Shown here in pieces: positions 12,862-55,514 of a stretch of 64,000 nucleotides of DNA. This stretch comes from an uncultured Candidatus Micrarchaeota archaeon. GTDB lineage: Archaea > Micrarchaeota > Micrarchaeia > Burarchaeales > Fermentimicrarchaeaceae. Every line of letters starts with the position of its first letter. The stretch's first letter is position 1. Under the pieces are notes generated by a model. That model saw only the letters and a list, made by a program, of their open reading frames with translations. It did not search any database and was not told where the DNA came from. The translations under genes and the position numbers were made by a program. The stretch covers positions 10,819 through 74,818 of the forward strand of contig CAISET010000015.1 in the NCBI GenBank assembly GCA_903884505.1, given 5' to 3'.

Positions 12862-12961
12862 TTTCCTTAGTGGTCGCAGGGCATCCGTCGCCAAAGAATC
12901 TTATCCTAAACGAAGGGTGCCCACTATACTTCCCGAATGCGGAGTCCTACGGGGTGGGTGC

Positions 12962-18900: not shown

Positions 18901-21900
18901 CCCGGTAGTCGCCCATGCCCCGGGCACAATACACAGCTGGGCGATACGTGGCCACAATTTCACGTACCGCGACAACACGACTAGCTTGATAATCTACGTA
19001 GATTATCTCGAAGAGTACTATAACACAGACTACATATACAAGGCTTACACCGGCGACTTTGCTGGAGACGTGCTGTCAATGGGGCCCAAGGACGCGAGCC
19101 TGAATCCCCACTGGTATGTGAACACGGTTACGAACCCATACATACACAACGACCTGGTAGGCTCGGCAAACCTGACTGTCGTTTACCTCAATGCAGGCAC
19201 AGATACCGACTGCGATACCGCAACCGCGCTTTCCTCCCCAACGGACCAGATATGGGCAAACGGAATCAAGAAGTATTATGAGGGAGAAGGAGCGGGAGCC
19301 AAGTACGTCGAGATAAAGGTCACCAATGGTTCGTATGTAACGTGCATCAACACGCTCGGCCTGGAACCTGTAGGCGGAGACCAGAACACGGATTATGACC
19401 TTGACGTGAAGACGAACGGCACTGTGAACAGCGGAATCGTGACCGTCTACATAGACTCGAATCCGACTTCAAATGACGACATCTCGCAGGCAACAGTGGC
19501 GAGCGGTTCGGTGAAGCTCTACAATATCTACTGGGCTGGCGCCAGCCCTGCGGACATAAGCTACAACGATTCAACCACTAAGCAACTGGACCTCACAGGC
19601 AGGAATCTCACCACAAACCCAACAACGATAAACGTCGGTAAGGTTTCAGGACTTTCGCATCCGGACATGACCACCGCGCAGGTCTACTTCGATAGTGCAT
19701 GCAACACAACACAACTGAGCACGGAAACCACGGGCGAGCCGTTTAATGCCAGCGGAACACCCCCATATGCGTACCAGCGGTACTTCGAGGACAACGGGAC
19801 ACAGTACCTCGCCGTGAGCGACGGCGTCCACACAACCTGCGGAACCGGCGGCTTCACCCTTTCAAATGAGGACGCAACAATAAACATGGGGAGGATGGTA
19901 AGCGGGTCGACGCCATCATCAACCTATGATGTGGTTACATGGGGAGGACTCCCTGCCGATGCTGACATTGTTTCTATAGCGGCAAATATGAGCGGAGGCG
20001 CAACTAATGACTTCACAACTTCGCCAGTCTCCACAGGGCCAGCGGCTCCAGACGATTACGTGCTGTTCGTTGACTCGGATGCGCTGGGGCTCTCAACAAC
20101 AATGCTGGACTTCTATGCCAACATTACCCCAACTGGCTTGGTGTTTGACAAGGCAGTAGACCTCTCTGCTTTAGACAACGTGACGAACGTCGCAAAGGTG
20201 GCAGGGCTTGCCGATGCGGGGCTCTGGGGAGGACAGTTCAGAGTGTGCGATGCGATACCTTCCCTTGCAGATTGGGGGGGCTGCACGACATATCTTGATA
20301 GCGTGCCCGTTATGCCGGCGAATGGCAGTCTGGCTACGCTCGACTACGACCTGTTCTTTGAGCAGCCAGCGGTAACAGACTATTACGTCGAGCTCCACAG
20401 TACGGGAGCTTACGGGGGAGCGCCATCATACACATACCACTTAGTTTCCACAACCCAATCCGGAGACTACATATACCAGGACTTTGACGGCGTTGTGTTT
20501 GGAACTGTAAACGAGACCTACAATGCAACAGTGCCGATACCAAACGTTGAGGTGAACGTGTACACTGGCATCACAGATCTCGTAAAGGCTTACACCGATG
20601 CCGCCGGTTACTACGAGCTATACTCCGGGAGCTCCAGTGGCCCGATGTTCATTGGCGAGCCTGCCATGCCTTACGGAGTAGCCTACAACATGAGTTTCCA
20701 GAAGGCAGGTTACGTGACGAGGGACTGGAATACAGATCCTAATGACACAACCGATTATTCGACTCCGTTCGTGGACAGCTCAAGCCCATTGGGCGACTTT
20801 GGAATAAACGGCGCTGCCTATCCCCTCGCTGGTGCCATAGGCCCTGACCGATTATACCTCCAGCTTCTCAGCGGGATAATCGTCAATGTTACGGACCTTG
20901 GAGGAAACCCGATAAACGACGCGACCGTCAGCATATATGACTGCAGCTTCAGCAGCAATCCGGCCGACTGCACTACAATCGGAACGTGCACGAATCCGCC
21001 CGGAGGAGTATTGACTGGCAACTGCACATTGGCAGCAGCAAACAACCCAGATGCATATCCGGGGCAGTACTTCTTCGCCGGGACAACAACACCGGGCGAC
21101 TACGTCCAGATACGGGTTGCGAAGGCGCCATTTGACACGCAGTTTGACCCAGACCCAAATGCAAGCGTCAACAATAATATAGGAGGAGGAGGCGCACTCC
21201 AAGCGCTCGTAAAGACAATACGCATGATAAATCCGGCGCCCAAATGCAGCTTGGAAGTCACGGCACCGGGCGGCATGTCCTACCAAGACAGGCAGTATCT
21301 TGTGGTAGCGAACGACTCCGCAGTCAAATTCGTCGTGCAGTGCGGTGAAGCAGGCCTCGACGTCACCGGAGACATGTCTCCGCTTGGTGGAGACCCGCTC
21401 GTCAGCTTCTACCCCGACTACGCGCTCGGAACCGTTTACAACCACTGGCAAGGCATCAACGCGTCGGACGACACCTACAGGCTACCCATCAACGCCTCCG
21501 ACGGAGTCAACACCTGGCAGGGCCTGGGCTACGTTGAAGTTGACGGCACGCCCCCAGGCATCTACGACTACTATCCCCACGGAGGCACGTTCAACACTAA
21601 GAGCGTGACTTTCGGTGTCTGGACCGATGAGATTGCAGTCTGCCACTACGACACTAACCCCAACGACATCTTCTGGAACATGTCCTACACGATGGCAGGC
21701 GACGGATCGCAGCACACCGGAATGGTCTATGCCGACAATGGCGCAAACACGGTTTACGTAAGATGCGCAGACCGCTTAGGCAATGCAATGAACACAAGCC
21801 AGGAAATAAGCTTCAACGTCGACGCAGTGGCGCCAAGCGTAACCAACGTAAGCCCGGCATACCTCATCAAGCCGTACAATGCAACCAACCGGGGCAACGT

Positions 21901-31174: not shown

Positions 31175-33628
31175 TCACCGCTTCCTCTTCCAGGCAACTG
31201 CCACTGCGATTCCCCCAAGCCCTGCCAGGATGAAGCCGAGCGGGCAGGTTGAAGGCTGCGGTGTGGGTGAAGGTGAGGCTGTCGGCATCGGAGTCGCGGT
31301 CGGGACCGGTGTCGGAGTCGCAGGCGATTGCAGCTGCGGTGCGAACGAATACACATAGGGGTTGCTCGCGTTGTACCTCTGCCAGTAGTCCTGGTTGTCA
31401 ATTGGTATCGGCGCAGAGATGGAAGTGCCGGTGCTGAGGGTTATGTTCGCTGTGGCGTTGCAGTTGTTCGTCGGCGGGTAGAAGTACGGCATCTCGCCCC
31501 TCCGCACGGTCACGGTGTAGTTGTAGCCGCCAGGCCCTTCGCCGCAGTCGAACAGCCAGGAGACGGTCATGTTGTATTCCTCTGCCGGAGAGCCGTCAGG
31601 GTTCGTGACGTTTAGCTGGATGAAGTTGCCGGGTATCTCGGGCGAGTCGTAGCGCTTCTCGTAGATTGGGTTCCCGTATGCATCATTGTGATATATTTTC
31701 GTGTACCCGATGGCTTCCCCGGACTCCCAGTAGTAGTGGTTCATGTAGTCATAGAAGAATCCGTGCGCCGCGAATATCTCGTCGAGGTTGTCCTGGCCAT
31801 TGTTGTCGCAATCGCCGTGTAGGCCCGGGAGACTCGAATCGTTGAACGCGCGGTAAAGGTCCCAGACGCTCGAGATGTAGCGCGTGCCTGAAAATGGCTC
31901 GCCGAACGTGTGCTGGGAGCCTATCACGCTCCATATCTGGTCACGGCTTAGGTGCACGCAATCCTTCCCGTTCACGGTGTTGTTGTACCCGAGGATGTTG
32001 ACTGCCTGGAACAGGGTGGACTGGTGGTTCAGCATCCTGTAAAGGGTTGAGGCGACCGCCATCTCCTCCGGGTTCCTGACATCGGTGTCCAGGTTTATCG
32101 CCGAGCCGGGCTGCCCGACCCAGTAGTCGTGCTGGTCCGTGTAGTTCCAGTACTGGAGGTTCATCACGCTGAAGAATTCAGCCCAGCCCTCTTCCCAGGA
32201 GTCCGTGGAATTGGGGTTGGACCAGCTTCCGTGGTTGTTGCCTGAGCGCACTGGCAGGCAGTTGAACCTGTCCAGCATCACATGGTGGCCGAACTCGTGC
32301 CACTCCATGTTCGTTGGCGAGGCGTCATAGAAGACGTTGTCATATGAGTTCTGGTTGTCACAGAAGTGTATCCAGTCATCGCTCGGAGGATTCCCGCACC
32401 AGGCTCCGAAGTGGCAGGCGTTGCAGCTCCCGCAGCCCGGCGACTTGTACCAGAACTCCTCCGGAGGCAAATAATCGATTGGAGTGCCGAGCGCCACTCT
32501 TGTGAAATATGATGCTTCCCAGGCGTGGTAGTATATCTTCGCCAGCACGCGCTCCTCGCCCTGATCGAAAGTGAGGTTCATGGCGTAAGTTTCCGGCCTG
32601 GAGAAATTCATAATCGCGGTCTTGCTAAGCACAGCCACCTTGTCGGGGTAGACGTGAATGGCGATGGAGTTGTTCACATCCTCGAGGAAAACAGTGACTG
32701 TCAGCGAACCTGCAGTGTGGTTTGTCAGGTTGACTCCGGGAACTACGACGTAGCCGTTCGAGTCCGTGTAGCCGTCGTAATCGAATGCCAACGAGGCGTG
32801 TTGTACGCAGTACTGCCCCGGCGGGCAGTACTGGCTGCCGCCAATCGGTTCGGTCACGTATCTGGCAGTTACCTTGGCATCCCTCAGTGGCTTCGTCACG
32901 TTATCCTTGTCCACGAACTGGGCCGAGCCGAGGCGGAAGTTGCATTTCGTGACATTGTTGCAGCCGGCGGCGCAGTGATAGCCGTTGGAAATCAGGCAGA
33001 GGCCGAGCTGCTGGCCGCAGGCCTTCTCCACGTATTCATCGCCGTAGCAGCCGGTTGTGCAGTTGGTGCAGTTCTGCGGCGGAGCGGTCTGTATTGGTAT
33101 GGGGGTGATGGAAGGTGACTGGATTGGCAACGGCGTCACCATGGGTGTTGCGGTTGGAGTCTGAGCCGGCGTTGGCGTCGGAGTTGGCGCGGGTGCGGCA
33201 GCGCATCCAGGCATTGCTGCGCTGCATCCATACGGGCAAGCGGTTGACTGGGCGTACTGGCAGGCACCGGTCGCACTCCTGTATCCTCCGGAATAGTAGA
33301 TTCTGTCCGAGCAGTAATCGTTGCACGGCGCTGGCGTCGCCGTTGGAGTCGGCGTGGGAGTGGGCGTCGGCCTCGGCGGCGAGTAGCATGCGGTGCCGTC
33401 CCGCGTGCATTGCCCGGATTCGCAGGCGGTGTCCGTGCGGCATGTGCAATTCCCATACACGACCGAGCAGCCGTAGTGGTAAGTGCCATCAGAGCAATAT
33501 TCGAACGGGCAGTAAGGCGTCGGAGTCGGGGTCGCAACCGTCCTTGCATTGGCAGCAAGCGCGAAAAGGGCCAAAACTGCAAATGCTAAAACCGCTCTGA
33601 CTTTCATATGACTCACCTCCGAACTCAC
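31175..33628 (-). CDS. Secreted zinc metallopeptidase (HEXXH). It has Cys-rich N-terminal modules, P/T linkers and a PGF-CTERM-like C-terminal anchor.
   Basis: 817 aa: signal MKVRAVLAFAVLALFALAANA; Cys-rich repeats (YCPFEYCSDGTYHYGCS.., CNDYCSDRIYYSGGY..); a CarbopepD-reg-like segment; the HEFGHH motif followed by EEGWAEFF (candidate third ligand); and the C-terminus ...TPVPTATPMPTASPSPTPQPSTCPLGFILAGLGGIAVAVAWKRKR. Confidence 0.65.
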   Translation of the reverse strand: MSSEVSHMKVRAVLAFAVLALFALAANARTVATPTPTPYCPFEYCSDGTYHYGCSVVYGNCTCRTDTACESGQCTRDGTACYSPPRPTPTPTPTPTATPAPCNDYCSDRIYYSGGYRSATGACQYAQSTACPYGCSAAMPGCAAAPAPTPTPTPAQTPTATPMVTPLPIQSPSITPIPIQTAPPQNCTNCTTGCYGDEYVEKACGQQLGLCLISNGYHCAAGCNNVTKCNFRLGSAQFVDKDNVTKPLRDAKVTARYVTEPIGGSQYCPPGQYCVQHASLAFDYDGYTDSNGYVVVPGVNLTNHTAGSLTVTVFLEDVNNSIAIHVYPDKVAVLSKTAIMNFSRPETYAMNLTFDQGEERVLAKIYYHAWEASYFTRVALGTPIDYLPPEEFWYKSPGCGSCNACHFGAWCGNPPSDDWIHFCDNQNSYDNVFYDASPTNMEWHEFGHHVMLDRFNCLPVRSGNNHGSWSNPNSTDSWEEGWAEFFSVMNLQYWNYTDQHDYWVGQPGSAINLDTDVRNPEEMAVASTLYRMLNHQSTLFQAVNILGYNNTVNGKDCVHLSRDQIWSVIGSQHTFGEPFSGTRYISSVWDLYRAFNDSSLPGLHGDCDNNGQDNLDEIFAAHGFFYDYMNHYYWESGEAIGYTKIYHNDAYGNPIYEKRYDSPEIPGNFIQLNVTNPDGSPAEEYNMTVSWLFDCGEGPGGYNYTVTVRRGEMPYFYPPTNNCNATANITLSTGTSISAPIPIDNQDYWQRYNASNPYVYSFAPQLQSPATPTPVPTATPMPTASPSPTPQPSTCPLGFILAGLGGIAVAVAWKRKR

Positions 33629-34227
33629 GCCTGCCTTATTTCAATCGTCTTCACCACGCTCTTGAGCGGGGCGCCGTTGTAGGAGACCGTGACCGTGAAA
33701 TTGTGCAGCCCGTAAGAGATGCCCGTGCACGTCGTGCATGAGGGCACGTTGAACCCGAAGTGCTGTTCGCTCTCCCCCTGCGGAAGGTCTAGCGTCATCT
33801 GCGTATCCATGATATTGCGGCCCCTCGAGTTGGTGATGCCGACAAGCGAGACGTTCACCCCCTGGAGCCTGCGCGCGGCGGTTATGTTCACGACTATCGC
33901 CATCTGGTCCAGCGCGTGATAGGAATCCCCGTCAGTATATACTTCGAGCGAAGTTATATCCTCGGGCAGGACAGCGCCGGAAGGCGTGGGGCTGGCAAGC
34001 GATTGCGTGGGCGCAGGCGTAGGGGTTGCGACGGGAGTTGCGAAGGGCGTTGGCGCTGGCGTCGGAGTCTGAACTGGAGTTGGCGTGCTCATCGGGGTAG
34101 CCACGGGGGTTGGCGTTGGCGCGGGAGGCACATTTCTGTCAATCCCACCGCTATATACTACTATTGCCGCTGCCGCCATCACGACTGCGAGCAGAACCAC
34201 AACAAGAATCCAGGTCTTCATACTCAT
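33625..34227 (-). CDS. N-terminally anchored extracellular protein with a P/T-rich linker (unknown function), co-transcribed with the metalloprotease
   Basis: 200 aa: MSMKTWILVVVLLAVVMAAAAIVVY signal-anchor, (PT/PA) linker, then a ~100-aa domain. 4-bp overlap with the downstream protease gene. Confidence 0.5.
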   Translation of the reverse strand: MSMKTWILVVVLLAVVMAAAAIVVYSGGIDRNVPPAPTPTPVATPMSTPTPVQTPTPAPTPFATPVATPTPAPTQSLASPTPSGAVLPEDITSLEVYTDGDSYHALDQMAIVVNITAARRLQGVNVSLVGITNSRGRNIMDTQMTLDLPQGESEQHFGFNVPSCTTCTGISYGLHNFTVTVSYNGAPLKSVVKTIEIRQA

Positions 34228-34241
34228 GCCCCCTTTGATTT

Positions 34242-34356
34242 CAGAACCCCCGATGCGCTGGCTTTAGTCGCCTTCGGCGACAACTGCGCAACTCACGTTG
34301 CGCATCGCCAACTTCGTTGGCGACTGCCTGTTGCGCGTTGCGCAACATCGTCGGTT
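34242..34356. repeat. Hairpin-mosaic repeat element, copy A (4 mini-hairpins; shared termini CAGAACCCCCGATGCGC...GCGCAACATCGTCGGTTCCTGAAC)
   Basis: GTCGCC-TTCG-GCGAC, GCGCAAC-TCACG-TTGCGC, GCCAAC-TTCG-TTGGC, GTTGCGC-GTT-GCGCAAC. Homologous to the elements at 34541, 43781 and 50827. Confidence 0.8.
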
Positions 34357-34469
34357 CCTGAACTTCTGTTTTCCGCTGGCGCTTTTTATTATGTTCTTAC
34401 AATTTCCGATTGAACGCTTTACCATACGCAACCCGATGGTAATCGGATATGCGTTGGGAAAGGGTTCAA

Positions 34470-34540
34470 AGCAGAGGATGGGAGTCGAACCCATCTGTTC
34501 CGGTCTGCAGCCGGACGCGTAGCCGCTCCGCCACCTCTGC
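34470..34540 (-). tRNA. tRNA-Cys (anticodon GCA)
   Basis: Minus-strand sequence GCAGAGG-TG-GCGGAGCGGCTACGCG-TCCGG-CTGCAGA-CCGGA-ACAG-ATGGG-TTCGACT-CCCAT-CCTCTGC-U. It forms a 7-bp acceptor stem, a 5-bp anticodon stem with loop CUGCAGA (anticodon GCA), a T-arm with a TTCGA(C)T loop, and a U discriminator. Confidence 0.9.
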
Positions 34541-34700
34541 AGAACCCCCGATGCGCAGGCTTGAGTCGCCTTCGGCGACAGCTGCGCAACTTCGTTGCGC
34601 ATCGCTCTTCGTTCCAAACGAGCTCGCTCACCGCGCATATCCAGTCGCCTTCGGCGACTGCCTGTTGCGCGTTGCGCAACATCGTCGGTTCCTGCACCTC
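34541..34700. repeat. Hairpin-mosaic repeat element, copy B, immediately 5' of tRNA-Cys (in its presumptive leader)
   Basis: Same termini as copy A: agaacccccgatgcgcaggcttga-GTCGCCTTCGGCGAC-...-GCGCAACTTCGTTGCGC-...ctcgctcaccgcgcatatcca-GTCGCCTTCGGCGAC-tgcct-GTTGCGCGTTGCGCAAC-atcgtcggttcctgcac. Confidence 0.8.
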
Positions 34701-34752
34701 CGCCGCTCTGGCGGAGGAGCTTTCTATATTGTGTTAGTCTGGTTTAAAAACG

Positions 34753-39533: not shown

Positions 39534-40064
39534 ATGCGACGGAACAAGGGACAGGCATCCATTGATTCGCCTTCGGCGAAAGCTCGCCGCCTGCTGGGGC
39601 AGGCGTCGATGGAACTTCTAATCACCCTAGCCTTCGCCCTCGTGATGCTCATACCAATCACCATCCTGGTCTACCTGCAGACGTCCTCCGGCTCGGAGCA
39701 GCTGGCGATAGACCAGGCGCAGCAGAGCGCGGCAAGGCTTAAGAACATCGCGGACACCGTGGCGGCCCAGGGCCCGCCGGCGAAGGCGACTATAAGCATA
39801 GTGATTCCACAGAGGCTGAACAGCATAACGATAGGCAGCGCCTCCGCGCCAGGAATAGGCAGGGAGATAATCTTCCACGTAGCGACTTCGGCTGGAGACA
39901 CCGAGATAGTCGCGACAACGCTTTACAATGTTACCGGCGACCTGAGCAACTACACGAAGGCAGGCACGTACCCCATCTATGCTGAAGCTGTGGACGACTG
40001 CCGCACATGTGATGGGAACATCATCGGGCCTGGCCTTCCATGCGTGGTCATCTGTCCGGCGTAG
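39534..40064 (+). CDS. Type IV pilin-like protein (class III signal peptide, Gln+1) P1. The leader holds an internal duplication and a hairpin module.
   Basis: MRRNKGQASIDSPSAKARRLLG|QASMELLITLAFALVMLIPITILVYL. The KG/LG-Q cleavage motif is followed by a ~20-aa hydrophobic helix. The ORF track starts at 39474, upstream of the promoter. Confidence 0.65.
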   Translation: MRRNKGQASIDSPSAKARRLLGQASMELLITLAFALVMLIPITILVYLQTSSGSEQLAIDQAQQSAARLKNIADTVAAQGPPAKATISIVIPQRLNSITIGSASAPGIGREIIFHVATSAGDTEIVATTLYNVTGDLSNYTKAGTYPIYAEAVDDCRTCDGNIIGPGLPCVVICPA

Positions 40065-41679: not shown

Positions 41680-43752
41680 TTGGAAAAACGCAGAAATGTG
41701 CTCAAAGGATTCTTCTTCACGCTACTGATAGTCGTGCTGTTCTCGCTCATCCTCCTCTCGCTGCGCGCCTGGATGAAGGGGCAGCAGGGTCCCGAGGAGC
41801 TGAATGCGGTAAGGGAACGGGCGGATGCAATGACCAGCATGATGGGCTCATGCGCCGCTGACGCGGACAGGATGACCTACCTCGCAGGCAACCGCTCGCT
41901 CTATTATGCGGCGTTCTATTCCGCCTACAACCTGACCGCGCACAGCAGCTCCAACCGCAGCGCCTACGAGATAATGTGGAACGCATCGCTCAACGGCTCC
42001 CCGAACTACGGTGTTCCGCCGGACACGTGCACTGCAGGCTCAAGCTTCTGCTATTTCGCAAACCAGACCGAGAACGCGACAATGGGCCTCTGGTGGCAGG
42101 GATTTGCGGCTGCCGCAGAAAAATACGGCTTCGACGCAAGCTGGCGACTCCACAGCTTCAACGCTTCCCAGTCCTCCCTCTCCGGAGTCTCGATTGCGCA
42201 CACCGCCAGCTTCGGGCTCAATGATTCGGCCGGCGTCGCATCGTTCAACAGGACGGTCTCGTTCAACAGGACCGTGAACATAACCGGCTTCGAGGACCCC
42301 ACGCACGCCATCTTCACCGACGGCGCAACACACCGCAACATCACCTGGTGGCCATACGACGCAAGCTATAATCTCACCTCAACAATCGCCACCGCAAGCA
42401 ACGGAAGCGGCTGGGTTTATGGCAATGCCACAACAATCCCCGGATGCTGCGTGGTCGACAACTGCACGGACGGCACGTTCGATGCCGTGGACTGGAACAC
42501 GACGCTCGTGGTAAACGATTCCAGCGCGCTCGCAGCGAACTGCCCTGATGCCGTGGCCAACAACTTCCGCGGAATCCTCTCCAACTACGGGAACGATTCC
42601 ATGTCAAGCATCACGGTCCCGAATGCATTCAACTTCGTCGGCGACATAACCTCCCTGGTGCCGAACGGGACCGCCGTGCTCATAAACAACGAAGGCGACA
42701 CGCACGAGGCCCTGGACGTGGAGGGGCTGCGCAACCTCACCGAATACGGCGCGTACTACAGGGAGAACCAGAACGCCCCGGACTTCATGATGCGGCTCGA
42801 GATGAATTTCAGCAACTCTCCATACGGGATTGAGTCGCTGATGAACTACTCGGAGGTCACGGACGCCGGCTTAAACCGCTCCTGGGCGGACTATTATTTC
42901 ATCAACGGGACCAGCTGCTCGGACTTGGCATCGGGATGCTTCAAAATCAAGGGGACCCTGAACTGCGAGAACTCCACGAACTGCAGCGACGACTCGGCAA
43001 TCCATTTCAGGCTGGACAACGAGACCGTGGTGGCGCAGCTTCCGGGATGCGTGCAGCCCCCTTCCGGGATGGTCGGGTGGTGGCATTTCGACGAGGGGAC
43101 CGGAACGAACGCCGCAGACAGCTCGGGAAACGGCAATAACGGGACGGTAAACGGCGCAACCTGGAACTCCAGCGGGATGTTCGGGGATGCGCTGACGTTT
43201 GACGGGAGTAATGATTATGTGAATACGACTTCGTCCGCCGGGTTATCCGGAGATTTTACGCTAGAAGCGTGGTTCATCGCAAATACCGTCCCAAACAGCA
43301 AAGGAATCGTAAGTGCCGGCTGCCAAACACCGTCGCAAAATTGTACAGATATAATGGGGTATGACGATAATATAACCGCGTTCATTGGGAGCGGTGGGGC
43401 ATACCTCTACTTGGTGGGGAACACGCCAATTGCTACAGATACCTGGTATTTTGCAACGGTAACCTATAACAGCACAACCCAGAATGTTTCTTTGTATGTT
43501 AATGGCGCGTATGACGCGAGCGCAATCCAGGCTACAACCGTTTCATTAACGCCTGTCTTCGGCAGGTTCTATTCCAATTACAACGATTATTATTTCAACG
43601 GCACCATCGACGAGGTCGCAATCTACAACCGCGCCCTCACGCAGGATGAGATTCAGGCAATCTACAATGCGGGCCCCGCAGGAATGTGCTACGGCATGAG
43701 CATGCCGCACCTCAACTACTACGGGATGGAGAACCTGACCCTGCCGAACTAG
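41680..43752 (+). CDS. Large pilin-like protein P5 with a C-terminal concanavalin-A-like lectin (LamG_3) domain; putative pilus adhesin
   Basis: TTG start. MEKRRNVLKG|FFFTLLIVVLFSLILLSL. ~450 aa are N-glycosylation-sequon rich. The C-terminal GMVGWWHFDEGTGTNAADSSGNGNNGTVNGATWNSSGMFGDALTFDGSNDYV...TWYFATVTYN...GTIDEVAIYNRALTQDEIQAIY is a classic LamG/Laminin_G_3 signature. Confidence 0.7.
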   Translation: MEKRRNVLKGFFFTLLIVVLFSLILLSLRAWMKGQQGPEELNAVRERADAMTSMMGSCAADADRMTYLAGNRSLYYAAFYSAYNLTAHSSSNRSAYEIMWNASLNGSPNYGVPPDTCTAGSSFCYFANQTENATMGLWWQGFAAAAEKYGFDASWRLHSFNASQSSLSGVSIAHTASFGLNDSAGVASFNRTVSFNRTVNITGFEDPTHAIFTDGATHRNITWWPYDASYNLTSTIATASNGSGWVYGNATTIPGCCVVDNCTDGTFDAVDWNTTLVVNDSSALAANCPDAVANNFRGILSNYGNDSMSSITVPNAFNFVGDITSLVPNGTAVLINNEGDTHEALDVEGLRNLTEYGAYYRENQNAPDFMMRLEMNFSNSPYGIESLMNYSEVTDAGLNRSWADYYFINGTSCSDLASGCFKIKGTLNCENSTNCSDDSAIHFRLDNETVVAQLPGCVQPPSGMVGWWHFDEGTGTNAADSSGNGNNGTVNGATWNSSGMFGDALTFDGSNDYVNTTSSAGLSGDFTLEAWFIANTVPNSKGIVSAGCQTPSQNCTDIMGYDDNITAFIGSGGAYLYLVGNTPIATDTWYFATVTYNSTTQNVSLYVNGAYDASAIQATTVSLTPVFGRFYSNYNDYYFNGTIDEVAIYNRALTQDEIQAIYNAGPAGMCYGMSMPHLNYYGMENLTLPN

Positions 43753-43780
43753 TTAGCCCTTTTGGATGGCAACAAATTCA

Positions 43781-44105
43781 TGCCGCCTTGCGGCAACAGC
43801 TTGCCCGCCACCAAGCGGGCAATCGCCTGCTGGCGAAATGTTGGCAACTGCGGCCGCCAACGCTCGCTGCCATATCCAGCCGCCTTCGGCGATTGATTTC
43901 GCCTTGCGGCGAAAGCTTTCGCATCCCGGATGCGAAATTTTAGCGGCAAAGCCGCTAAAGCTGTCGCTTTGCCGCGGGCAAAGCGCCATTGAGTCGCCTT
44001 TCGGCGACAGCTCAAATCGCCTGCGGCGATAACTGCGCAACTCACGTTGCGCATCGCCAACTTCGTTGGCGACTGTCTGTTGTTTCGCCCCGCTCAACAA
44101 CATCC
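43781..44105. repeat. Hairpin-mosaic repeat element, copy C (longest, ~13 mini-hairpins) in the convergent intergenic region
   Basis: TGCCGC-CTTG-CGGCA, GCCCGC-CACCAA-GCGGGC, GTTGGC-..-GCCAAC, CCGCC-TTCG-GCG, TTCGCC-TTGCG-GCGAA, TTCGCATCC-CG-GATGCGAA, AGCGGC-AAA-GCCGCT, CGCTTTGCC-GCG-GGCAAAGCG, GTCGCC-TTTCG-GCGAC, ATCGCC-TGCG-GCGAT, GCGCAAC-TCACG-TTGCGC, GCCAAC-TTCG-TTGGC. The 3' end is a degenerate copy of the shared terminus. Confidence 0.75.
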
Positions 44106-44135
44106 TAAAAGCGCTAGCGGAAAATGCCAAACTCT

Positions 44136-45128
44136 TTACGTAAGTATCCCGGCGAAGACGGTGCTGAATATCCAGTTCGTCATGAAGAAGATCGACAGCC
44201 CGGCAGCCATGATGAAGGGCATTATCCTTAGGCCGTTGGCGGAATTGCCGGTCTGTATGACCGCTATTATAAGAGACGCGATTGCCGTGGTGATGATGGT
44301 CGAGAGAAGGGAGAATGCGAAGAAGTCCGAGGACGTGATTCCGGGTGGCTGGGGCGAGAGGAACATCATCCCGCCGGTCGGCAGGCCCTCGGGGTTCTGC
44401 TCCAGCACCCTGTCCCATATGACGTTCGTGATGTTTATGAGCTGGTTGGACAGCGCATAGAGCAGGGGCGCGCCGACCACGCTCGCGAATATTATGAATA
44501 TGACATACATCAGCATCATTCCGGAAATCTCCTTGTGGAGCAGCTGCAGGTTCCTTATGTCCTGCCCCGTCTTCTCGAGCAGCGCCGCGACCTCGCCACC
44601 TGCCGACATCCCCTCAACGAGGAGGTTTATCGTCCTCTCGAGCGTCTTCGACTGGAACCGCGTCCCGAGCCTCTTTATCGCATCCATGAAAGGCTCGCCG
44701 CTGAACGTCCTCTTCGTGACCATCTCCACCTCCTGCGAGAGCAGGCCGAACTCGGGCCTGGCGGCGAACCACAGCGCCCGGTCTATGGGCATGCCGGCGC
44801 GCACATTGGCGCTCGCGAGCTGGAGGAACTCCGGGAGGATGTTCTCCACCTTGTTCCGCCTGTCGTCTATCCTGAGGAGCAGCCACGCATAAATTATCCC
44901 AAGCGCCACGAATATGAGGCACAGGGAAACTATCAGCGCATATTTCGGAAGGAACGGGTTGATGAGGAAGAACGAGACCAGCGGGACGATCGCGCAGAGC
45001 ACCATAACCGTGCCCACGAACGCCTCGGGCCTCATGTTCACTCCTGCCATCGAGAGCGTGCTCGCAATTCCCATCACGAAGTTCCTCGGAAACATCCTTC
45101 CCAGTGCGTTAAGCTCAACCATATTCAA
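44136..45128 (-). CDS. Type II secretion system F-domain membrane protein (FlaJ/TadC/EpdK-like pilus platform protein), C-terminal-half paralog
   Basis: 330 aa with ~8 TM segments and the T2SSF-like cytoplasmic segment (...LLQLASANVRAGMPIDRALWFAA...). 4-bp overlap with the upstream platform gene. Confidence 0.75.
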   Translation of the reverse strand: MNMVELNALGRMFPRNFVMGIASTLSMAGVNMRPEAFVGTVMVLCAIVPLVSFFLINPFLPKYALIVSLCLIFVALGIIYAWLLLRIDDRRNKVENILPEFLQLASANVRAGMPIDRALWFAARPEFGLLSQEVEMVTKRTFSGEPFMDAIKRLGTRFQSKTLERTINLLVEGMSAGGEVAALLEKTGQDIRNLQLLHKEISGMMLMYVIFIIFASVVGAPLLYALSNQLINITNVIWDRVLEQNPEGLPTGGMMFLSPQPPGITSSDFFAFSLLSTIITTAIASLIIAVIQTGNSANGLRIMPFIMAAGLSIFFMTNWIFSTVFAGILT

Positions 45129-50804: not shown

Positions 50805-53800
50805 ATGTCCCGAAACCGTGCCCAATCAGAACCCCCGATGCGCAGGCTTGAGTCGCCTTCGGCGATTGTGTCGCCTTCCGGCGACAGCTCGCCAACTTCG
50901 TTGGCGACTGCTGCGCAACTTCCGTTGCGCATCGCTCTTCGTTCCAACGCGATTTGCGCTTCGGCGCAAATGCGTCGCAGTTCGCCACCGAGGCGAACTT
51001 GCGAACGAACTCGCTCGCCGCGCATATCCAGTCGCCTTCGGCGACTGCCTGTTGCGCGTTGCGCAACATCGTCGGTTCCTGAACCTCCGCACATCAAAGG
51101 TCAGGCAGCCATAGAGTTTCTTATTACAAACGGCTGGGCCATCCTCGTCGTAGTCATCCTTCTCGCCGTCCTCTTCTACATAGGAGTTTTGAGCCCCCAG
51201 AACACCACGCCTAACACCTGTCTTTTCCAACCCGGCTTCTCCTGCTACACATTCAAAGTGGGAAATGTAACCGGTTCCCTGGAACTGGATTTTGGCCAGG
51301 CGACAGGCAAATCAATTCTAGTCACAGGAATCTCCTGCTCCCAGAACGCAACTGCCGCACTCCATACATCTCCCCTTGCGGAGGACATCACCGTCCCATC
51401 AGGCGAGCATCGCTGGATTGCCGGGGGAACTTCCAACAACAGCGGCATCATCTGCGAAGGCGCGACAGGCGTGGCAGGTAGCAGGTACAAGGGCACAGTC
51501 TGCGTAAATTACATCGAATCCGACGCCAACGCCCAAAGATTAATCTGCGGAGACATAAACGCGAGGCTTGAGCCGGCATCCATACCCCGCGGGAGCCCGA
51601 CAACTACGCCATACCCGACTCCGCCGCTAGGAGCGACTCCCATCACCGACTGCTCCTCCAGCCCCATCATAATCAGCTCTCCGGGCTATTACTACCTGAA
51701 CAGCAGCCTTACCTCAAGCGGCAACAACTGCATAGAAATAACCGCGGACGCCAGCAACTCCATCCTGGACTGCTATGGCCACAGCATAACCGGCACACCC
51801 TACAGTGGCGCGGGCATCTATCTGCAGGCCACCACTGGAGTAACTCTGAGGCATTGTGTCGTTAGCACATTCTATCAGGGCATTCTCCTGGGCCCTTCCT
51901 CCACTGGCAACATCATCACGGACAACACCGCCAGCTCGAACCAACATGGCATCTTCCTTCAGTCGGCCAACGGCAACACCATAACCGGCAACATTGCCAA
52001 TTCGAACGGCGACACGGGCATCTACTTCTTCTCCTCGAGCGACAACAACCTTACCGGCAATAACGCCCTTGCAAACAACGGCTACGGCATCTATACGGAC
52101 GGCAACTCGGCCAACAACCTGTTCACGGGAAATGCCGCCTGCTGGAACCGGAACCAGGACGTCCACTGCGACGTGTCCCAGAGCGAGGGCAATGATAACA
52201 TCTGCATGCCCTACGAGGAAACCGTCTGCTCGGGCAGCATCACCTGCAACCCCGTCTGTCCGGCTCCCCCGGCTCCCGCATGCGCGCCAGGCTTTGTGGT
52301 GAGTTCCTGCGACTGCGTGCTGAACGTTCCCGGCAATTACACGCTTGAAAGCGACCTGAATGAGACGCAGGGCGGCGACTGCATAGATATCATAGCAAAT
52401 GATTCGAACCTCGACTGCCAGCACCACAGCATCACGAGCCAAAGCGGCGGCACCGGCATAATGATAGTCAACTGGAATACCTATAGCATAAGCGGAGTGA
52501 GCGTTGAAAACTGCAACGCCAGCAACCTCTCATATGGAATTTACGCATACGGCGTGTACAACAGCACAATAACGGACAACATTGCCAGCGCGAACCAATA
52601 TGGCATCTTCATCCAGTCGTCCAGCGGCAACATCATCTCGGGCAACACCGCCAACTCGAACCCCAATACCAACATCTACCTCTCTTCCGCAACAGACAAC
52701 AACCTCACGGGCAACACTGCCCTCGCAAGCATCAACGGCTACGGCGTCTATGCGGACGGCAGTTCGAGCAACAACCTGCTCACGGAAAACTCCGCCTGCT
52801 GGAACCAATACGGGGACGTATACTGCGACGCGCCCCAAACTGAGGGCAACGGCAACATCTGCATGCCATACGAGGGAACCGCGTGCCTGGACAGCATCAC
52901 CTGCAACCCCACATGCCCATCGCCTTCCCCACCGGATTGCGCACCGGGCTGGGTGGTAAGCTCCTGCGGCTGCACGCTGAACATGCCTGGCAACTACACA
53001 CTGGAAAGCGACCTGAATTCCACGGGCGGCGACTGCATAGACATCACGGCAAATGGTGCGAACCTCGACTGCCAGCACCACAGCATCACAACCCAAGGCG
53101 GAGGCAACGGCATAATGATAGCCAACTGGAATACCGGCAGCATAAGCGAAGTGAGCGTTGAAAACTGCAACCCGAGCAACTTCAGCGTTGGCATCTACGC
53201 GTATGGCTTGAGCGGCGGCAACATGAGCGGCAACACCGCCAGCGCCAATTCCGAGGGCATGATGCTGCAGAACTCCAACGGCATTGAAATCACGGGCAAT
53301 ACCGCCAGCTCGAACTCCGATGTCGGCATCCTCCTATCGTCATCAAGCGACAACAACCTCACGGGCAATCACGCCACTGGGAACAACGGAATCGGCGGCA
53401 TCTATGCGGACTCCGGTTCCAGCAACAACCTACTCACGGACAACACCGCCTGCTGGAACACATATTATGGCATCTACTGTGATGCGCCCCAAACTGAGGG
53501 CAACGGCAACATCTGCATGCCATACGGGGAAACCGCGTGCTTGGGCAGCATCACCTGCAATTCCGAATGCCCGCCGCCTGAGCCGCCCGCCTGCGCCCCA
53601 GATTGGGTGGTGAATAGCTGCTCATGCATCCTCGGAGTGCCGGGAGATTATACGCTTGATTCCGACCTGCATTATTCGGACTACAGCGATTGCATAGACC
53701 TCTATTCCGGCGCAAGCGGCTCAACCCTCGACTGCCAGGGGCACAGCATAACCGGAGTTCCGGGCATGGGGCAGGGCATCGCACTCTGGTCCAATAACAT

Positions 53801-55514
53801 CACAGTCAGGAACTGCAACCTGGCCAATTTCAGCAACGGCATCGTTGCCTTCACCACCCACGGCAGCAGCATCATCGGCAACAACGTCAGTTCAACCGAC
53901 TATGGCATCTCCCTATGGTCTTCTTCAACCAACGATACTATTGCGGGCAACAACGCCAGCTTTAACATTTTTGGCATCACGCTGAGTTCGTCCAGTGGCA
54001 ACAACTTCACGGACAACATAGCCATGAACAACACTGCCACCGGAAATTCATTTGCCGACTTCTATTGCATATCGTCGGATTCAAACGGTGATTATGGCAA
54101 CGTCTGTGAAACGCAGGCTGGCTGCGAGTCGTGGCTCGGCTGCGGCCTTATGCCCGCCTGCAGTTCCAGCATCACAGAATGCTGCGTAATCAACTCCACT
54201 GGCTCATACTCGCTCGCGGACGATATCTCTGCCGCCGGCGACTGCATAAGCATCCTGCCCGGTGCTAACGGAGCGACGCTTGACTGCGGCGGCAAGACTA
54301 TTACGGGGCCGGGAAACAGCGGCAACGGAATCCAGTTGTTCGGCACAAGCGGAGTGACTGTGGAGAACTGCGGAGTCAGCGGCTTTATGTACGGCATAAG
54401 CTTGTCATCAGCAAACGGCAATGCAATAACAGGCAACAACGCCAGCTCAAACGGCCAGATCGGCATTTTAATGAGTGCATCAAACGGCAATGATATCACG
54501 GGCAACACAGCTAATTCAGACTATAGCGGCATCAGCATGTCGTATTCCGATGGCAACACGATAACCGGCAATACGGTCTCGAACGGCAACTCGAACGGCC
54601 AAGGTATCATTATGTCCCAATGCGATGGCAATGCCATAACCGGAAACACTGTCACCCTGAACTACTACGGTATTTACCTCTCGTATTCAACCGACAACAC
54701 AATCTCCGGCAATATCGCAAACTCGAACCACTTCGGCATCGAAATAGAGTACTCGAGCTACAACAACACCGTGACTGGCAACACTGCCTGCTGGAGCGGT
54801 GAACTGAATAAGAATATCTACTGCGATGTTGCCCAAAACGACGGCGGCGGCAACATCTGCGCACCTGAGGGCCCGAACACGGTCTGCTCGCACAACGTCT
54901 CCTGCGGTTCCGGATGCCCGCCGCCCCTTCCGCCCTCCTGCGCCCCCGGCTGGGTGATAAGTACCTGCCCATGCACCATCGGAGTGCCGGAGAGCTACAC
55001 GCTTGATTCGGACATTAATTACACGAACCCGTCTGGTGGAACCTGCATAACAGTGTCGGCAGGGGCCAGCGGCGCGACCATAAACTGCCAAGACCACAAC
55101 ATCACAGGCTCAGGAAGCGGCTTCGGCATCTCCCTTTACAGCGTCAACGGCATTAGTGTCGAGAACTGCAAAGTGAGCAACTTCAGCAAGGGCATCTACC
55201 TCAGTTACGCCAATGGCAACACCCTAACTAACAACATCGCCAGCTCGAACCACGATACCGGCATCATGATCGAAGGCTCCAACAACAACACCTTTACGGG
55301 CAACACCGCAAACCAGAACACCTACGAAGGCATGTACCTGCAGTACGGAAGCACAAACAACAACTTCACGGGCAATACGGCAATTGGCAACTCGGACTAC
55401 GACTTCATATGCAACAGCTTGAACTCCAACAATGACCTCGGCGGAAATGTATGCAGCAACCGAGATTCCTGCGGCCCGAACCCGCCCTATTGGCTCAACT
55501 GCACCGCACCGTAG
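50805..55514 (+). CDS. Giant pilin-like beta-helix protein B1. The class III signal ...HIKG|QAAIEFLITNGWAILVVV puts mature Gln at 51102. Five ~215-aa Cys-rich-linker + parallel beta-helix modules follow. The start codon is uncertain.
   Basis: 1569-aa ORF. The first 99 codons are read through hairpin element D, with no ATG/GTG/TTG just upstream of KG|Q. The module is ...ACWNxYGDVYCDAPQTEGNGNICMPYEGTAC..SITCNPxCPxPxPPxCAPGWVVSSCxCxLNxPGNYTLESDLN...DCQHHSIT...NNLTGNTA... (PbH1/NosD-like repeats). Confidence 0.65.
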   Translation: MSRNRAQSEPPMRRLESPSAIVSPSGDSSPTSLATAAQLPLRIALRSNAICASAQMRRSSPPRRTCERTRSPRISSRLRRLPVARCATSSVPEPPHIKGQAAIEFLITNGWAILVVVILLAVLFYIGVLSPQNTTPNTCLFQPGFSCYTFKVGNVTGSLELDFGQATGKSILVTGISCSQNATAALHTSPLAEDITVPSGEHRWIAGGTSNNSGIICEGATGVAGSRYKGTVCVNYIESDANAQRLICGDINARLEPASIPRGSPTTTPYPTPPLGATPITDCSSSPIIISSPGYYYLNSSLTSSGNNCIEITADASNSILDCYGHSITGTPYSGAGIYLQATTGVTLRHCVVSTFYQGILLGPSSTGNIITDNTASSNQHGIFLQSANGNTITGNIANSNGDTGIYFFSSSDNNLTGNNALANNGYGIYTDGNSANNLFTGNAACWNRNQDVHCDVSQSEGNDNICMPYEETVCSGSITCNPVCPAPPAPACAPGFVVSSCDCVLNVPGNYTLESDLNETQGGDCIDIIANDSNLDCQHHSITSQSGGTGIMIVNWNTYSISGVSVENCNASNLSYGIYAYGVYNSTITDNIASANQYGIFIQSSSGNIISGNTANSNPNTNIYLSSATDNNLTGNTALASINGYGVYADGSSSNNLLTENSACWNQYGDVYCDAPQTEGNGNICMPYEGTACLDSITCNPTCPSPSPPDCAPGWVVSSCGCTLNMPGNYTLESDLNSTGGDCIDITANGANLDCQHHSITTQGGGNGIMIANWNTGSISEVSVENCNPSNFSVGIYAYGLSGGNMSGNTASANSEGMMLQNSNGIEITGNTASSNSDVGILLSSSSDNNLTGNHATGNNGIGGIYADSGSSNNLLTDNTACWNTYYGIYCDAPQTEGNGNICMPYGETACLGSITCNSECPPPEPPACAPDWVVNSCSCILGVPGDYTLDSDLHYSDYSDCIDLYSGASGSTLDCQGHSITGVPGMGQGIALWSNNITVRNCNLANFSNGIVAFTTHGSSIIGNNVSSTDYGISLWSSSTNDTIAGNNASFNIFGITLSSSSGNNFTDNIAMNNTATGNSFADFYCISSDSNGDYGNVCETQAGCESWLGCGLMPACSSSITECCVINSTGSYSLADDISAAGDCISILPGANGATLDCGGKTITGPGNSGNGIQLFGTSGVTVENCGVSGFMYGISLSSANGNAITGNNASSNGQIGILMSASNGNDITGNTANSDYSGISMSYSDGNTITGNTVSNGNSNGQGIIMSQCDGNAITGNTVTLNYYGIYLSYSTDNTISGNIANSNHFGIEIEYSSYNNTVTGNTACWSGELNKNIYCDVAQNDGGGNICAPEGPNTVCSHNVSCGSGCPPPLPPSCAPGWVISTCPCTIGVPESYTLDSDINYTNPSGGTCITVSAGASGATINCQDHNITGSGSGFGISLYSVNGISVENCKVSNFSKGIYLSYANGNTLTNNIASSNHDTGIMIEGSNNNTFTGNTANQNTYEGMYLQYGSTNNNFTGNTAIGNSDYDFICNSLNSNNDLGGNVCSNRDSCGPNPPYWLNCTAP
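50827..51090. repeat. Hairpin-mosaic repeat element, copy D (8 mini-hairpins), inside the 5' end of the first giant pilin-like gene
   Basis: Starts cagaacccccgatgcgcaggcttga-GTCGCCTTCGGCGA... and ends ...GTCGCCTTCGGCGAC-tgcct-GTTGCGCGTTGCGCAAC-atcgtcggttcctgaac, as in copies A and B. Confidence 0.8.

Follow-up and report, generated by a model that had tools for sequence, protein, structure and literature searches.

Much work has been done on the small dispersed hairpin repeats of bacteria and organelles, but such repeats have hardly been described in DPANN archaea. The BOX elements of Streptococcus pneumoniae (boxA-boxB(n)-boxC) and the enterobacterial repetitive intergenic consensus sequences or intergenic repeat units (ERIC/IRU) of Enterobacteria have conserved ends and variable internal modules; they form a long imperfect hairpin in intergenic DNA that is transcribed, and internal insertions give rise to larger variants. 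Rickettsia palindromic elements are palindromic repeats which sit in frame inside protein-coding genes. Repetitive extragenic palindromic (REP) units are imperfect palindromes of 20-40 nt with a conserved GTAG or CGTC at one end (PMC3733652). They are found in bacterial interspersed mosaic elements (BIMEs), clusters of short GC-rich palindromes in the transcribed spacers behind stop codons of Enterobacteria and Pseudomonas, which are mosaic, vary in copy number between strains and have been proposed to protect upstream mRNA (PMC3733652, PMC3184786). Organelle genomes, those of yeast and Volvox among them, hold GC clusters and palindromic repeats; these are lineage-specific bursts of GC-rich hairpins and have been read as selfish (PMC4478555, PMC2670323). 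Among MITEs (miniature inverted-repeat transposable elements), the Correia elements of Neisseria serve as the comparison here (PMC10969869, PMC11602168). In this study we describe a hairpin repeat family in 64,000 nt of DNA (the window) from an uncultured Candidatus Micrarchaeota archaeon (contig CAISET010000015.1, positions 10,819 to 74,818), and in particular copy C, an array of hairpins in the gap between two convergent pilus operons.

The family is dispersed, specific to this archaeal lineage and previously undescribed; no description of it was found in the literature on Micrarchaeota or DPANN archaea. All five window copies, A to E, lie in one absolute orientation, and copy C is the largest and most decayed of them. 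Its family orientation is the minus strand, which is the sense strand of the adjoining gene for a T2SSF protein. On balance we favour the view that copy C is a composite, decayed repeat copy, DNA accumulated in a permissive convergent gap and not a purpose-built terminator. DPANN genomes are usually seen as compact and streamlined; the symbiont studied here, of the ~1-Mb class, tolerates hairpin bursts, even in genes. L-numbers below denote comparison loci.

By analogy, the array would work most like a BIME cluster, and the unit of the family appears most like a BOX, ERIC or Correia-type element. The first-pass annotation of the window, made from the sequence alone, had likened the array to REP sequences, and the analogy is apt in that clustered GC-rich palindromes lie behind stop codons. 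Copy C follows the stops of both operons, 17 of 21 units begin (at GGAGG) 0-51 nt behind a same-strand stop, the composition of copy C is mosaic, and copy number varies between strains. Unlike REPs, the hairpins here are 14-22 nt long with perfect 5-9 bp stems, diverse sequences and no GTAG/CGTC tag, and they are carried, in an archaeal host, by a larger unit that has terminal inverted repeats. Furthermore, REPs alternate, whereas all hairpins here point the same way (GNA or GNRA loops in 25 of 43 on the family strand, 0 of 43 on the other), and no REP-associated tyrosine transposase (RAYT) was found among the ~45 window open reading frames (ORFs) scanned with Pfam.

With BOX and ERIC the family shares conserved ends and internal insertions, but not sequence; its internal modules are independent mini-hairpins with GNA/GNRA loops, its left end is a Shine-Dalgarno (SD)-like GGAGGT and its right end often abuts a start codon. 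As in MITEs, copies A, B and D carry terminal inverted repeats of 8-9 bp, measure 120-260 nt, are non-coding, and lie beside genes as part of a family with many dispersed copies. In contrast to MITEs, copy C has no terminal repeats, duplications of the flanks are absent or of 12-33 nt without a fixed length, no parent insertion sequence with matching ends is known, and the window holds no transposase. Copies D and E and the NosD leader of the L012 lineage are in frame in genes, as are the Rickettsia elements; unlike those, they sit in a cleavable class III signal-peptide leader and consist of the same mini-hairpins as the intergenic arrays. Organelle GC clusters likewise swell intergenic DNA, and their palindromes are perfected by templated repair; the differences are a cellular archaeal host, strict strand polarity and association with stop/start junctions. 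Of the features that define REPs, the family has neither tag nor alternation, and no RAYT was seen in the window; of those that define MITEs, copy C has no terminal repeats and the duplications are not of fixed length.

Hairpins of the convergent gap

An exhaustive scan of positions 43740-44140 (perfect stems of at least 5 bp, loops of 3-6 nt) gave 15 perfect stems, which reduce to 13 strong non-overlapping hairpins and one weak one (44075-44099). Scan and folding place the array of 13 at 43781-44072 on the minus strand, with loops including GAA, GTGA, GCA, GAAA and GCAA. This bears out the 12-13 successive perfect stem-loops of 5-9 bp that the first-pass annotation had counted in 325 bp: 264 of the 325 nt (81%) at 43781-44105 lie inside hairpins, and the array is, as it had also claimed, the longest member of the hairpin mosaics in the window. 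That span does contain the hairpins; as limits of the gap it was too short, because the unannotated gap is 43753-44135. Energies, for which a hairpin-by-hairpin calculation had been proposed, range from -5.4 to -15.8 kcal/mol for the 13 strong hairpins with RNA parameters and from -4.2 to -9.8 with DNA parameters. The 383-nt gap as a whole folds at -175.2 kcal/mol on the plus strand and -193.1 on the minus strand, compared with -134.5 and -152.4 in dinucleotide shuffles (z = -7.2 and -7.0; 0 of 100 shuffles as low). Stems of at least 6 bp number 100 in the 64-kb window against ~71 in composition-matched shuffles; in the gap, eight cluster at 43897-44072 and three more lie at 43781-43822 and 43993-44030. 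The hairpins of copy C are almost equally stable on both strands, and a barrier in either transcript is therefore physically possible.

Such strong predicted structure could also mean that the gap encodes a structured non-coding RNA or, alternatively, an antisense regulator. We consider this highly improbable, as the gap holds a string of independent local hairpins and not an integrated fold, its best score in an Rfam 15 scan was 18 bits against a gathering score of 123 (tRNA-Cys being the sole match in the window), it has no promoter-like TATA element, and its sequence is not conserved in relatives, hairpins being gained and lost between strains. Tandem periodicity is likewise absent from the gap: Tandem Repeats Finder gave only one 20-nt repeat of 2.2 copies, and there is no CRISPR-like regular array.

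The repeat unit and its copies

The basic unit of the family is 58-80 nt long, reads GGAGGTK-CAG(G)AACC-variable core-GGTTCTGA and folds into a rod-like hairpin. Its parts are GGAGGTT, a left repeat, a GC-rich core with GGATATG.. and GAGCGAG motifs, a right repeat and a final A; pairing of the ends, CAG(G)AACC/GGTTCTG, leaves one G bulged. When 13 units are aligned, the eight pairs of the outer stem are invariant or compensated, with one change from U-A to G-C at the tRNA-Cys site, and the inner helix covaries (AAGG/CC(A)TT, AACG/CG(A)TT, ACGG/CCGT). Single units fold with z down to -5.4. A K-turn in the internal loop was considered and its motif is not present, and the unit matches no family in Rfam. 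Long units are short units in which perfect hairpin blocks of 14-22 nt, flanked by 3-nt repeats, have been inserted in the core (copy B compared with L022, L029 with L021).

Three copies in the window have full units, all on the minus strand. Copy A (34242-34367) consists of a unit of 119 nt (34242-34360) and, on its left, a degenerate flank GAAGTT; the copy ends 14 nt ahead of the ATG that opens the minus-strand gene 33625-34227. Copy B (34540-34701) is GGAGGTG plus 155 nt (34540-34694), and on the right it shares one base, the first of tRNA-Cys (34470-34540, minus strand). Copy D (50827-51088), GGAGGTT plus 255 nt (50827-51081), lies antisense and in frame at the 5' end of a NosD/beta-helix ORF (50805-55514). 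The ends of the three are identical, (GGAGGTK)CAGGAACCGACGATG...CATCGGGGGTTCTG on the minus strand, with terminal inverted repeats (T)CAG(G)AACC / GGTTCTG(A). Copy E (39559-39605, minus strand) is a two-hairpin module between duplicated GQAS codons inside the pilin gene 39534-40064.

Exact scans for the 21-nt terminus GCGCAACATCGTCGGTTCCTG in genome and metagenome contig collections gave no match, so the species is absent from those collections. A degenerate left-end pattern (GGAGGTKCAGGAACCNNSGATRT) found 22 metagenome loci, of which 17 are true members and five are chance matches without a right end. A match on a viral contig was discarded as chance, since it has a GC content of 40% and lacks a right end; the contig is the one that also carries L020. 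None of the other metagenome contigs which carry units has a further array like copy C.

The position of units relative to genes is not random. Besides the stop codons upstream, an ATG lies 0-3 nt downstream of several units (e.g. the gene after L029, and L021), and a tRNA 0-3 nt downstream of others (tRNA-Gly at L023/L032; tRNA-Cys at window copy B and in L012). The flanks show no duplication in 16 of 20 units; the remaining four have duplications of 33 (L030), 17 or more (L034), 12 (L036) and 22 nt (L039), compared with 0.8% of control flank pairs with a duplication of at least 10 nt. The downstream flank copy of L034 contains an 'empty' form, GGAGGTTCTGA. Two further candidates were rejected. 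A small protein encoded by the unit does not fit the frames opened by the ATG after GGAGGT, which differ between copies and in several cases run into tRNAs, and the unit ends do not, by eye, fit the RYYYAAC/GTTRRRY of attC or integron-like sites.

Anatomy of copy C

Read along the minus strand, copy C begins behind the TAA stop of the T2SSF gene with 11 nt and TTTTCCGCTAGCGCTTTT (44124-44107), followed by the left part of a unit, GGATGTTG...CAACAGACAG. This degenerate left end (GGATGTTGTTGAGCGGGGCGAAACAACAGAC, 44075-44106; counterpart CGATGTTGCGCAACGCGCAACAGGC in A, B and D) has only one weak hairpin and is missing the terminal repeat CAGGAACC. Next comes a three-hairpin block (44072-44016) like that of copy A; the shared block, 44016-44082, comprises three hairpins and then CAGACAG, and 44017-44082 is 95% identical to copy A 34268-34333 over 66 nt. 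Its hairpins are ATCGCC-GCA-GGCGAT, TGCGCAAC-GTGA-GTTGCGCA and TCGCCAAC-GAA-GTTGGCGA. L029, which comes from a metagenome of the same series as L014, a contig of the L012 lineage, has the two-hairpin module TGCGCAAC..GTTGCGCA-GTT-ATCGCC..GGCGAT as well.

The block is followed by GTCGCC-GAAA-GGCGAC (43993-44008, -10.4 kcal/mol), whose GNRA loop is GGAA in L009, and by four hairpins found nowhere else, three with TTT...AAA stems. This part of the array holds CGCTTTGCC-CGC-GGCAAAGCG (43965-43985, -13.1), TTTAGCGGC-TTT-GCCGCTAAA (43939-43959, -11.9) and TTTCGCATC-CGG-GATGCGAAA (43917-43937, -9.8), the latter two missing from L009, and TTTCGCC-GCAA-GGCGAAA with a GNRA loop (43897-43914, -9.6), which together with its flanks is homologous to the pilin-gene module 39566-39584. 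Then comes a piece of the core of another unit, the second (GGCTGGATATGGCAGCGAG, 43879-43863). The whole unit-core fragment, CGCCGAAGGCGGCTGGATATGGCAGCGAG (43863-43891, minus strand), includes the hairpin 43878-43892 and is the counterpart of ...GTCGCCGAAGGCGACTGGATATGCGCGGTGAGCGAG in copies B and D and of the short-unit core GGATATGGCGACGAGCG. The segment that the first-pass annotation had recognised as common to copies B and D is indeed shared, 43871-43892 being 95% identical to 34636-34657 and 51023-51044.

Four hairpins close the array: GTTGGC...GCCAAC (43840-43861), with a longer stem on the minus strand (-11.7 against -7.6 on the plus strand), TCGCC-AGCA-GGCGA (43823-43836, -6.9), TTGCCCGC-TTGGTG-GCGGGCAA (43801-43822, -15.8 on the minus strand) and TGCCGC-AAG-GCGGCA (43781-43795, -8.7). 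At the distal end the degenerate GCCATCCAAAAGGG, which holds the complement of a plus-strand T4, adjoins the stop of the 690-aa gene. Here GTTGCCATCCAAAAGGGCTAA (43753-43780, minus strand) resembles GCCATCCATTGGTTCTGA, the right end of unit L032, and this short likeness suggests a degenerate right unit end. The degenerate 3' terminus of the family reported earlier at the end of the array is indeed visible. Within ≤3 mismatches, searches for the terminal repeats matched only A, B and D, and a unit profile (nhmmer) run on the window did not detect copy C at E<10. From its order of parts, copy C is made of at least two decayed units plus local hairpin growth.

The array in other strains and relatives

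The loci compared here carry an orthologous T2SSF gene. L008 has an identical T2SSF and is 99.9% identical to the window, with a gap of 384 nt owing to an indel of 1 nt within a run of G. L009 is from the same species but another sample; it shows one mismatch in the first 1244 aligned nt and has an array two hairpins shorter, through a precise 45-nt deletion flanked by AGCTTT direct repeats. Its loop changes keep the loop class (GAAA>GGAA, GAA>GGA). The distal part of its array is 92% identical to the window, has a proper unit right end and matches the unit profile. At 1460-1785 of L009, TTTAAAA comes after the array, then another full unit and the start of a gene (MKMDVTELTF) which is not in the window; the neighbourhood differs either because of rearrangement at the repeat or because the assembly is chimeric. 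Contigs may break or turn chimeric at these repeats, which matters for assembly.

The comparison of orthologous intergenic regions that the first-pass annotation had proposed gave gaps of widely differing length. In L011, the closest relative in all five genes compared (T2SSE 96%, T2SSF 88% and 80%, 406-aa protein 84%), the array is missing and the gap is 0 nt. The next lineage, L012-L014 (T2SSF 78%, 61% G+C), has a gap of 216 nt with five hairpins, an array partly homologous to that of the window but reshuffled; the T-run motif on the proximal side, the distal end and one hairpin are common to both, and the other modules differ. More distant loci have gaps of 29 (L015), 3 (L018) and 47 nt (L019) without hairpins, and seven Micrarchaeota genomes at ~50% identity have no array at the orthologous site. 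Judged from these sequences, the array is lineage-specific, in flux and dispensable, which is the opposite of what would be expected of a required terminator. The conserved piece of the gap is the T-run motif beside the T2SSF stop.

Loops and stems of the mini-hairpins

Mini-hairpins have been inserted in units, and at some other sites, in this genome and in the L012 lineage. In a census of 43 perfect hairpins from 11 regions, the family strand has 16 GNA and nine GNRA loops and the opposite strand none of either. Homologous hairpins swap loops among GAA, GGA, GCA, GAAA, GGAA and GTGA, and keep the first G, the last A and the C-G closing pair. The pair TGCGCAAC-loop-GTTGCGCA-GTT-RTCGCC-loop-GGCGAY, for example, recurs in C, A and L029 with different loops. 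The polarity is kept even at sites whose host gene runs opposite to the family strand (copies D and E, the L012 NosD leader). Stems are perfect apart from five with a single mismatch, and TCGCC cores are extended by a complementary outer pair in 16 of 22 cases, the pair varying between G-C, A-T and T-A on both sides together. Strand-specific loops on perfect, co-varying stems mean either that hairpin formation on one strand is constrained or that the palindromes are actively perfected.

GNRA loops stabilise RNA, and C-GNA-G and C-GNNA-G loops are those of the classic ultra-stable DNA mini-hairpins; GNA triloops and GNRA-type loops closed by C-G, as in d(GCGAAGC) and d(GCGAAAGC), form the most stable ones. 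The clean strand polarity of the G..A loops could reveal whether single-stranded DNA (ssDNA) or RNA is the selected form. A comparison of G.U with A.C mismatches, as a test of selection at the RNA or the DNA level, was set aside, as five imperfect stems give it no power.

Transcription termination

In archaea, transcripts are terminated through oligo-U, without dependence on hairpins. The first-pass annotation had stated that the region has no T-runs, which holds for the minus strand inside the array and fails elsewhere: T4 runs stand at both borders, and there is one T4 inside the array on the plus strand (43940-43943). On the plus strand the border run (43760-43763) falls inside the degenerate right end 43753-43780, 8 nt past the TAG of the 690-aa gene. 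On the minus strand TTTTCCGCTAGCGCTTTT (44107-44124), with two T4 runs 11 nt past the T2SSF stop, is conserved as TTTTCCGTTAACGCTTTT in L012 and is probably the oligo-T terminator of the T2SSF operon. As it adjoins the T2SSF stop and is conserved in a lineage at 78% identity, this motif would be a better terminator candidate than the array. A second copy of the TTTTCCGCTAGCGCTTTT motif lies at 34369-34386 (plus strand). The motif TTTTCCGC-NN-GCGCTTTT (AAAAGCGCNNGCGGAAAA on the opposite strand) adjoins family units (L028, L036, L023) as well as the T2SSF stop; it could represent an oligo-T terminator, or else belong to an extended version of the element.

It had been proposed that the array acts as a bidirectional terminator or RNA-stability element. 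A dedicated terminator is not supported, because the closest relative, at 88-96% amino-acid identity in the flanking genes, has a 0-nt gap, other relatives have gaps of 3, 29 and 47 nt, and L009 of the same species has lost two of the hairpins; the confinement of the loops to one strand argues against a symmetrical bidirectional design, and a scan for bacterial-type intrinsic terminators (GC-rich hairpin plus U-run) was at chance level, with two weak matches against 1.2 in shuffles and tails that are not U-runs.

More broadly, the array could be an RNA element of benefit to the host, with hairpins that block 3'-to-5' exonucleases or help RNA polymerase to stop, in the manner of REP/BIME. The hairpins, at -5 to -16 kcal/mol on both strands, would be suited to this; the family lies in sense orientation directly behind stop codons, GNRA tetraloops, which are classic RNA stabilisers, are on the T2SSF sense strand, the stems show compensatory change, and the L012 lineage has an array at the same site. 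We nevertheless judge this explanation unlikely. In addition to the variable gap, the chance-level terminator scan and the one-sided loops just described, hairpin number varies within the species, the T-run motifs which flank the array lie upstream of it in both transcripts, and the same modules occur antisense inside coding regions, where such a function cannot apply.

Origin and spread of the array

The explanation we favour, that copy C is accumulated repeat DNA, would involve several processes. Modules would be gained and lost through DNA-level copying between family members and through slippage between short direct repeats, and palindromes would be perfected by a templated process, with hairpins extruded on one particular strand. 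Since a convergent gap has no promoter or ribosome-binding site to damage, insertions could persist there. Transcription of both operons would most likely end at the T4 runs flanking the array, and any read-through RNA would fold into hairpins and be shielded from 3'-to-5' decay, as a side effect and not as the reason for the array. Several observations weigh against this explanation. The structure is constrained in both its compensatory stems and its G..A loops, which could reflect a host function, and the presence of the array at one site in two lineages may mean long retention. On either strand the hairpins have the stability needed for an RNA barrier, the copying mechanism is an inference with no candidate mobilising enzyme, and the model leaves the common orientation of the five window copies unexplained.

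That orientation would be accommodated if the hairpins were targets of a strand-specific enzyme, such as a RAYT-type HUH/Y1 transposase or a Cas1/casposase-like integrase, and copy C a hot spot of repeated enzyme-driven insertion of an active ssDNA element. The dominant loops, GNA triloops and GNRA-type loops closed by C-G, point in this direction, as does the polarity that persists antisense to host genes. At two sites, the pilin gene and tRNA-Cys, single modules of ~35 nt have been inserted and the target is duplicated over 13 nt, and flank duplications of 12-33 nt in four of 20 units exceed the control rate. We regard this possibility, taken whole, as quite improbable: Pfam found no transposase, integrase or reverse transcriptase among the ~45 ORFs of the 64-kb window, the duplications are not of fixed length, unlike the products of known transposases and casposases, no conserved tag like the GTAG/CGTC of REPs stands beside the hairpins, and the very diverse hairpin sequences are hard to square with sequence-specific recognition.

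A more speculative model, to which we give a rather low probability, is that the family is a portable split ribosome-binding site, spread as ssDNA hairpins by a strand-specific mechanism which would leave target duplications of variable length, with copy C as the fossil record of such events. The left end of the unit is the SD-like GGAGGT and the right end, TCTGA, often abuts ATG, and SD-like motifs stand ahead of eight of 29 genes here compared with 8.5% of random positions. The hairpin would separate the SD sequence from the start spacer (TCTGA|TG), and folding would restore the working distance; insertion between a stop and a start, or before a tRNA, would then be possible without silencing the downstream gene. 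Modules would survive in pilin genes because the prepilin peptidase removes the encoded peptide. This SD-hairpin-start architecture offers a testable mechanism of harmless insertion.

Insertions in genes and at tRNA-Cys

In the first pilin gene, at 39534-39625, the insert is 48 nt long, in frame, and consists of two hairpins, giving MRRNKGQAS-IDSPSAKARRLL-GQASMELLI. The GQAS duplicates differ at three of 13 nt, all third codon positions, and the L012 and L015 orthologues are without the insert. At 50805-51110, in the 1569-aa NosD/beta-helix ORF, the 255-nt unit of copy D lies between the ATG and the class III motif KGQAAIEFL. As there is no in-frame ATG, GTG or TTG after codon 56 of this ORF, at least 44 hairpin-derived codons are translated, or the gene is inactive. 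In public gene calls the NosD start lies 128 codons further downstream, within the hydrophobic helix, and seems to be miscalled; for annotation, the family explains wrong start calls in pilin and adhesin genes.

At the orthologue of the copy D site in L012 (2925-3030) the leader reads MGKGQSALE-hairpins-HGQSALEFL. The two GQSALE copies differ at five of 18 nt, all synonymous third positions, and the downstream copy is the 3' arm of the hairpin GCGCAGAC...GTCTGCGC, as if the hairpin had been built by inverted copying of adjacent coding sequence. At the tRNA-Cys site orthologous to copy B, L012 (17844-18010) and L035 have a unit followed by a duplication of the first 13 nt of tRNA-Cys, then a hairpin insert of ~36 nt in which tRNA sequence is reused for the outer stem, GGCGGAA/TTCCGCC; the intact tRNA comes last. 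Bulge-helix-bulge introns were considered for the inserts in genes and are not supported, as that motif is missing from the folds. In relatives without the family, tRNA-Cys genes carry one or more long insertions (L015 ~18300-18420, L018 ~16990-17160, L019 ~18220-18340), probably introns, some at non-canonical positions; tRNA-Cys of the window is uninterrupted.

Flanking operons

The ORF list and Pfam delimit the convergent intergenic gap (43753-44135, 383 nt, no strand) by the 690-aa Laminin_G_3 gene and the T2SSF/TadC gene, and the placement of the array between a pilin operon and a pilus-platform operon in the first-pass annotation was correct. The plus-strand operon is a row of genes for class III signal peptide (pilin-like) proteins, with N-termini including KGQASMELLI and LKGQTWSYDLVI, and is closed by the Laminin_G_3 gene (41680-43752, Pfam; stop TAG at 43750-43752). 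The minus-strand operon encodes a T2SSE ATPase, a 268-aa protein and two T2SSF proteins, and its closing gene (44136-45128), for a T2SSF/TadC-type pilus platform protein by Pfam and homology, ends at 44136. Public gene calls on same-species contigs place no gene inside the gap of 383-384 nt. ORFs in the gap, e.g. 43753-44418 (minus strand), were rejected as coding, as they overlap T2SSF out of frame and are absent from those calls. The T2SSF protein beside the gap is 51% identical to Candidatus Micrarchaeota proteins, e.g. of Ca. Fermentimicrarchaeum limneticum, and an identical protein was found on 10 public contigs. The G+C content of the 64-kb window is ~57%. Elsewhere in the window, positions 12917-23287 of the plus strand form a single ORF of 3456 aa.

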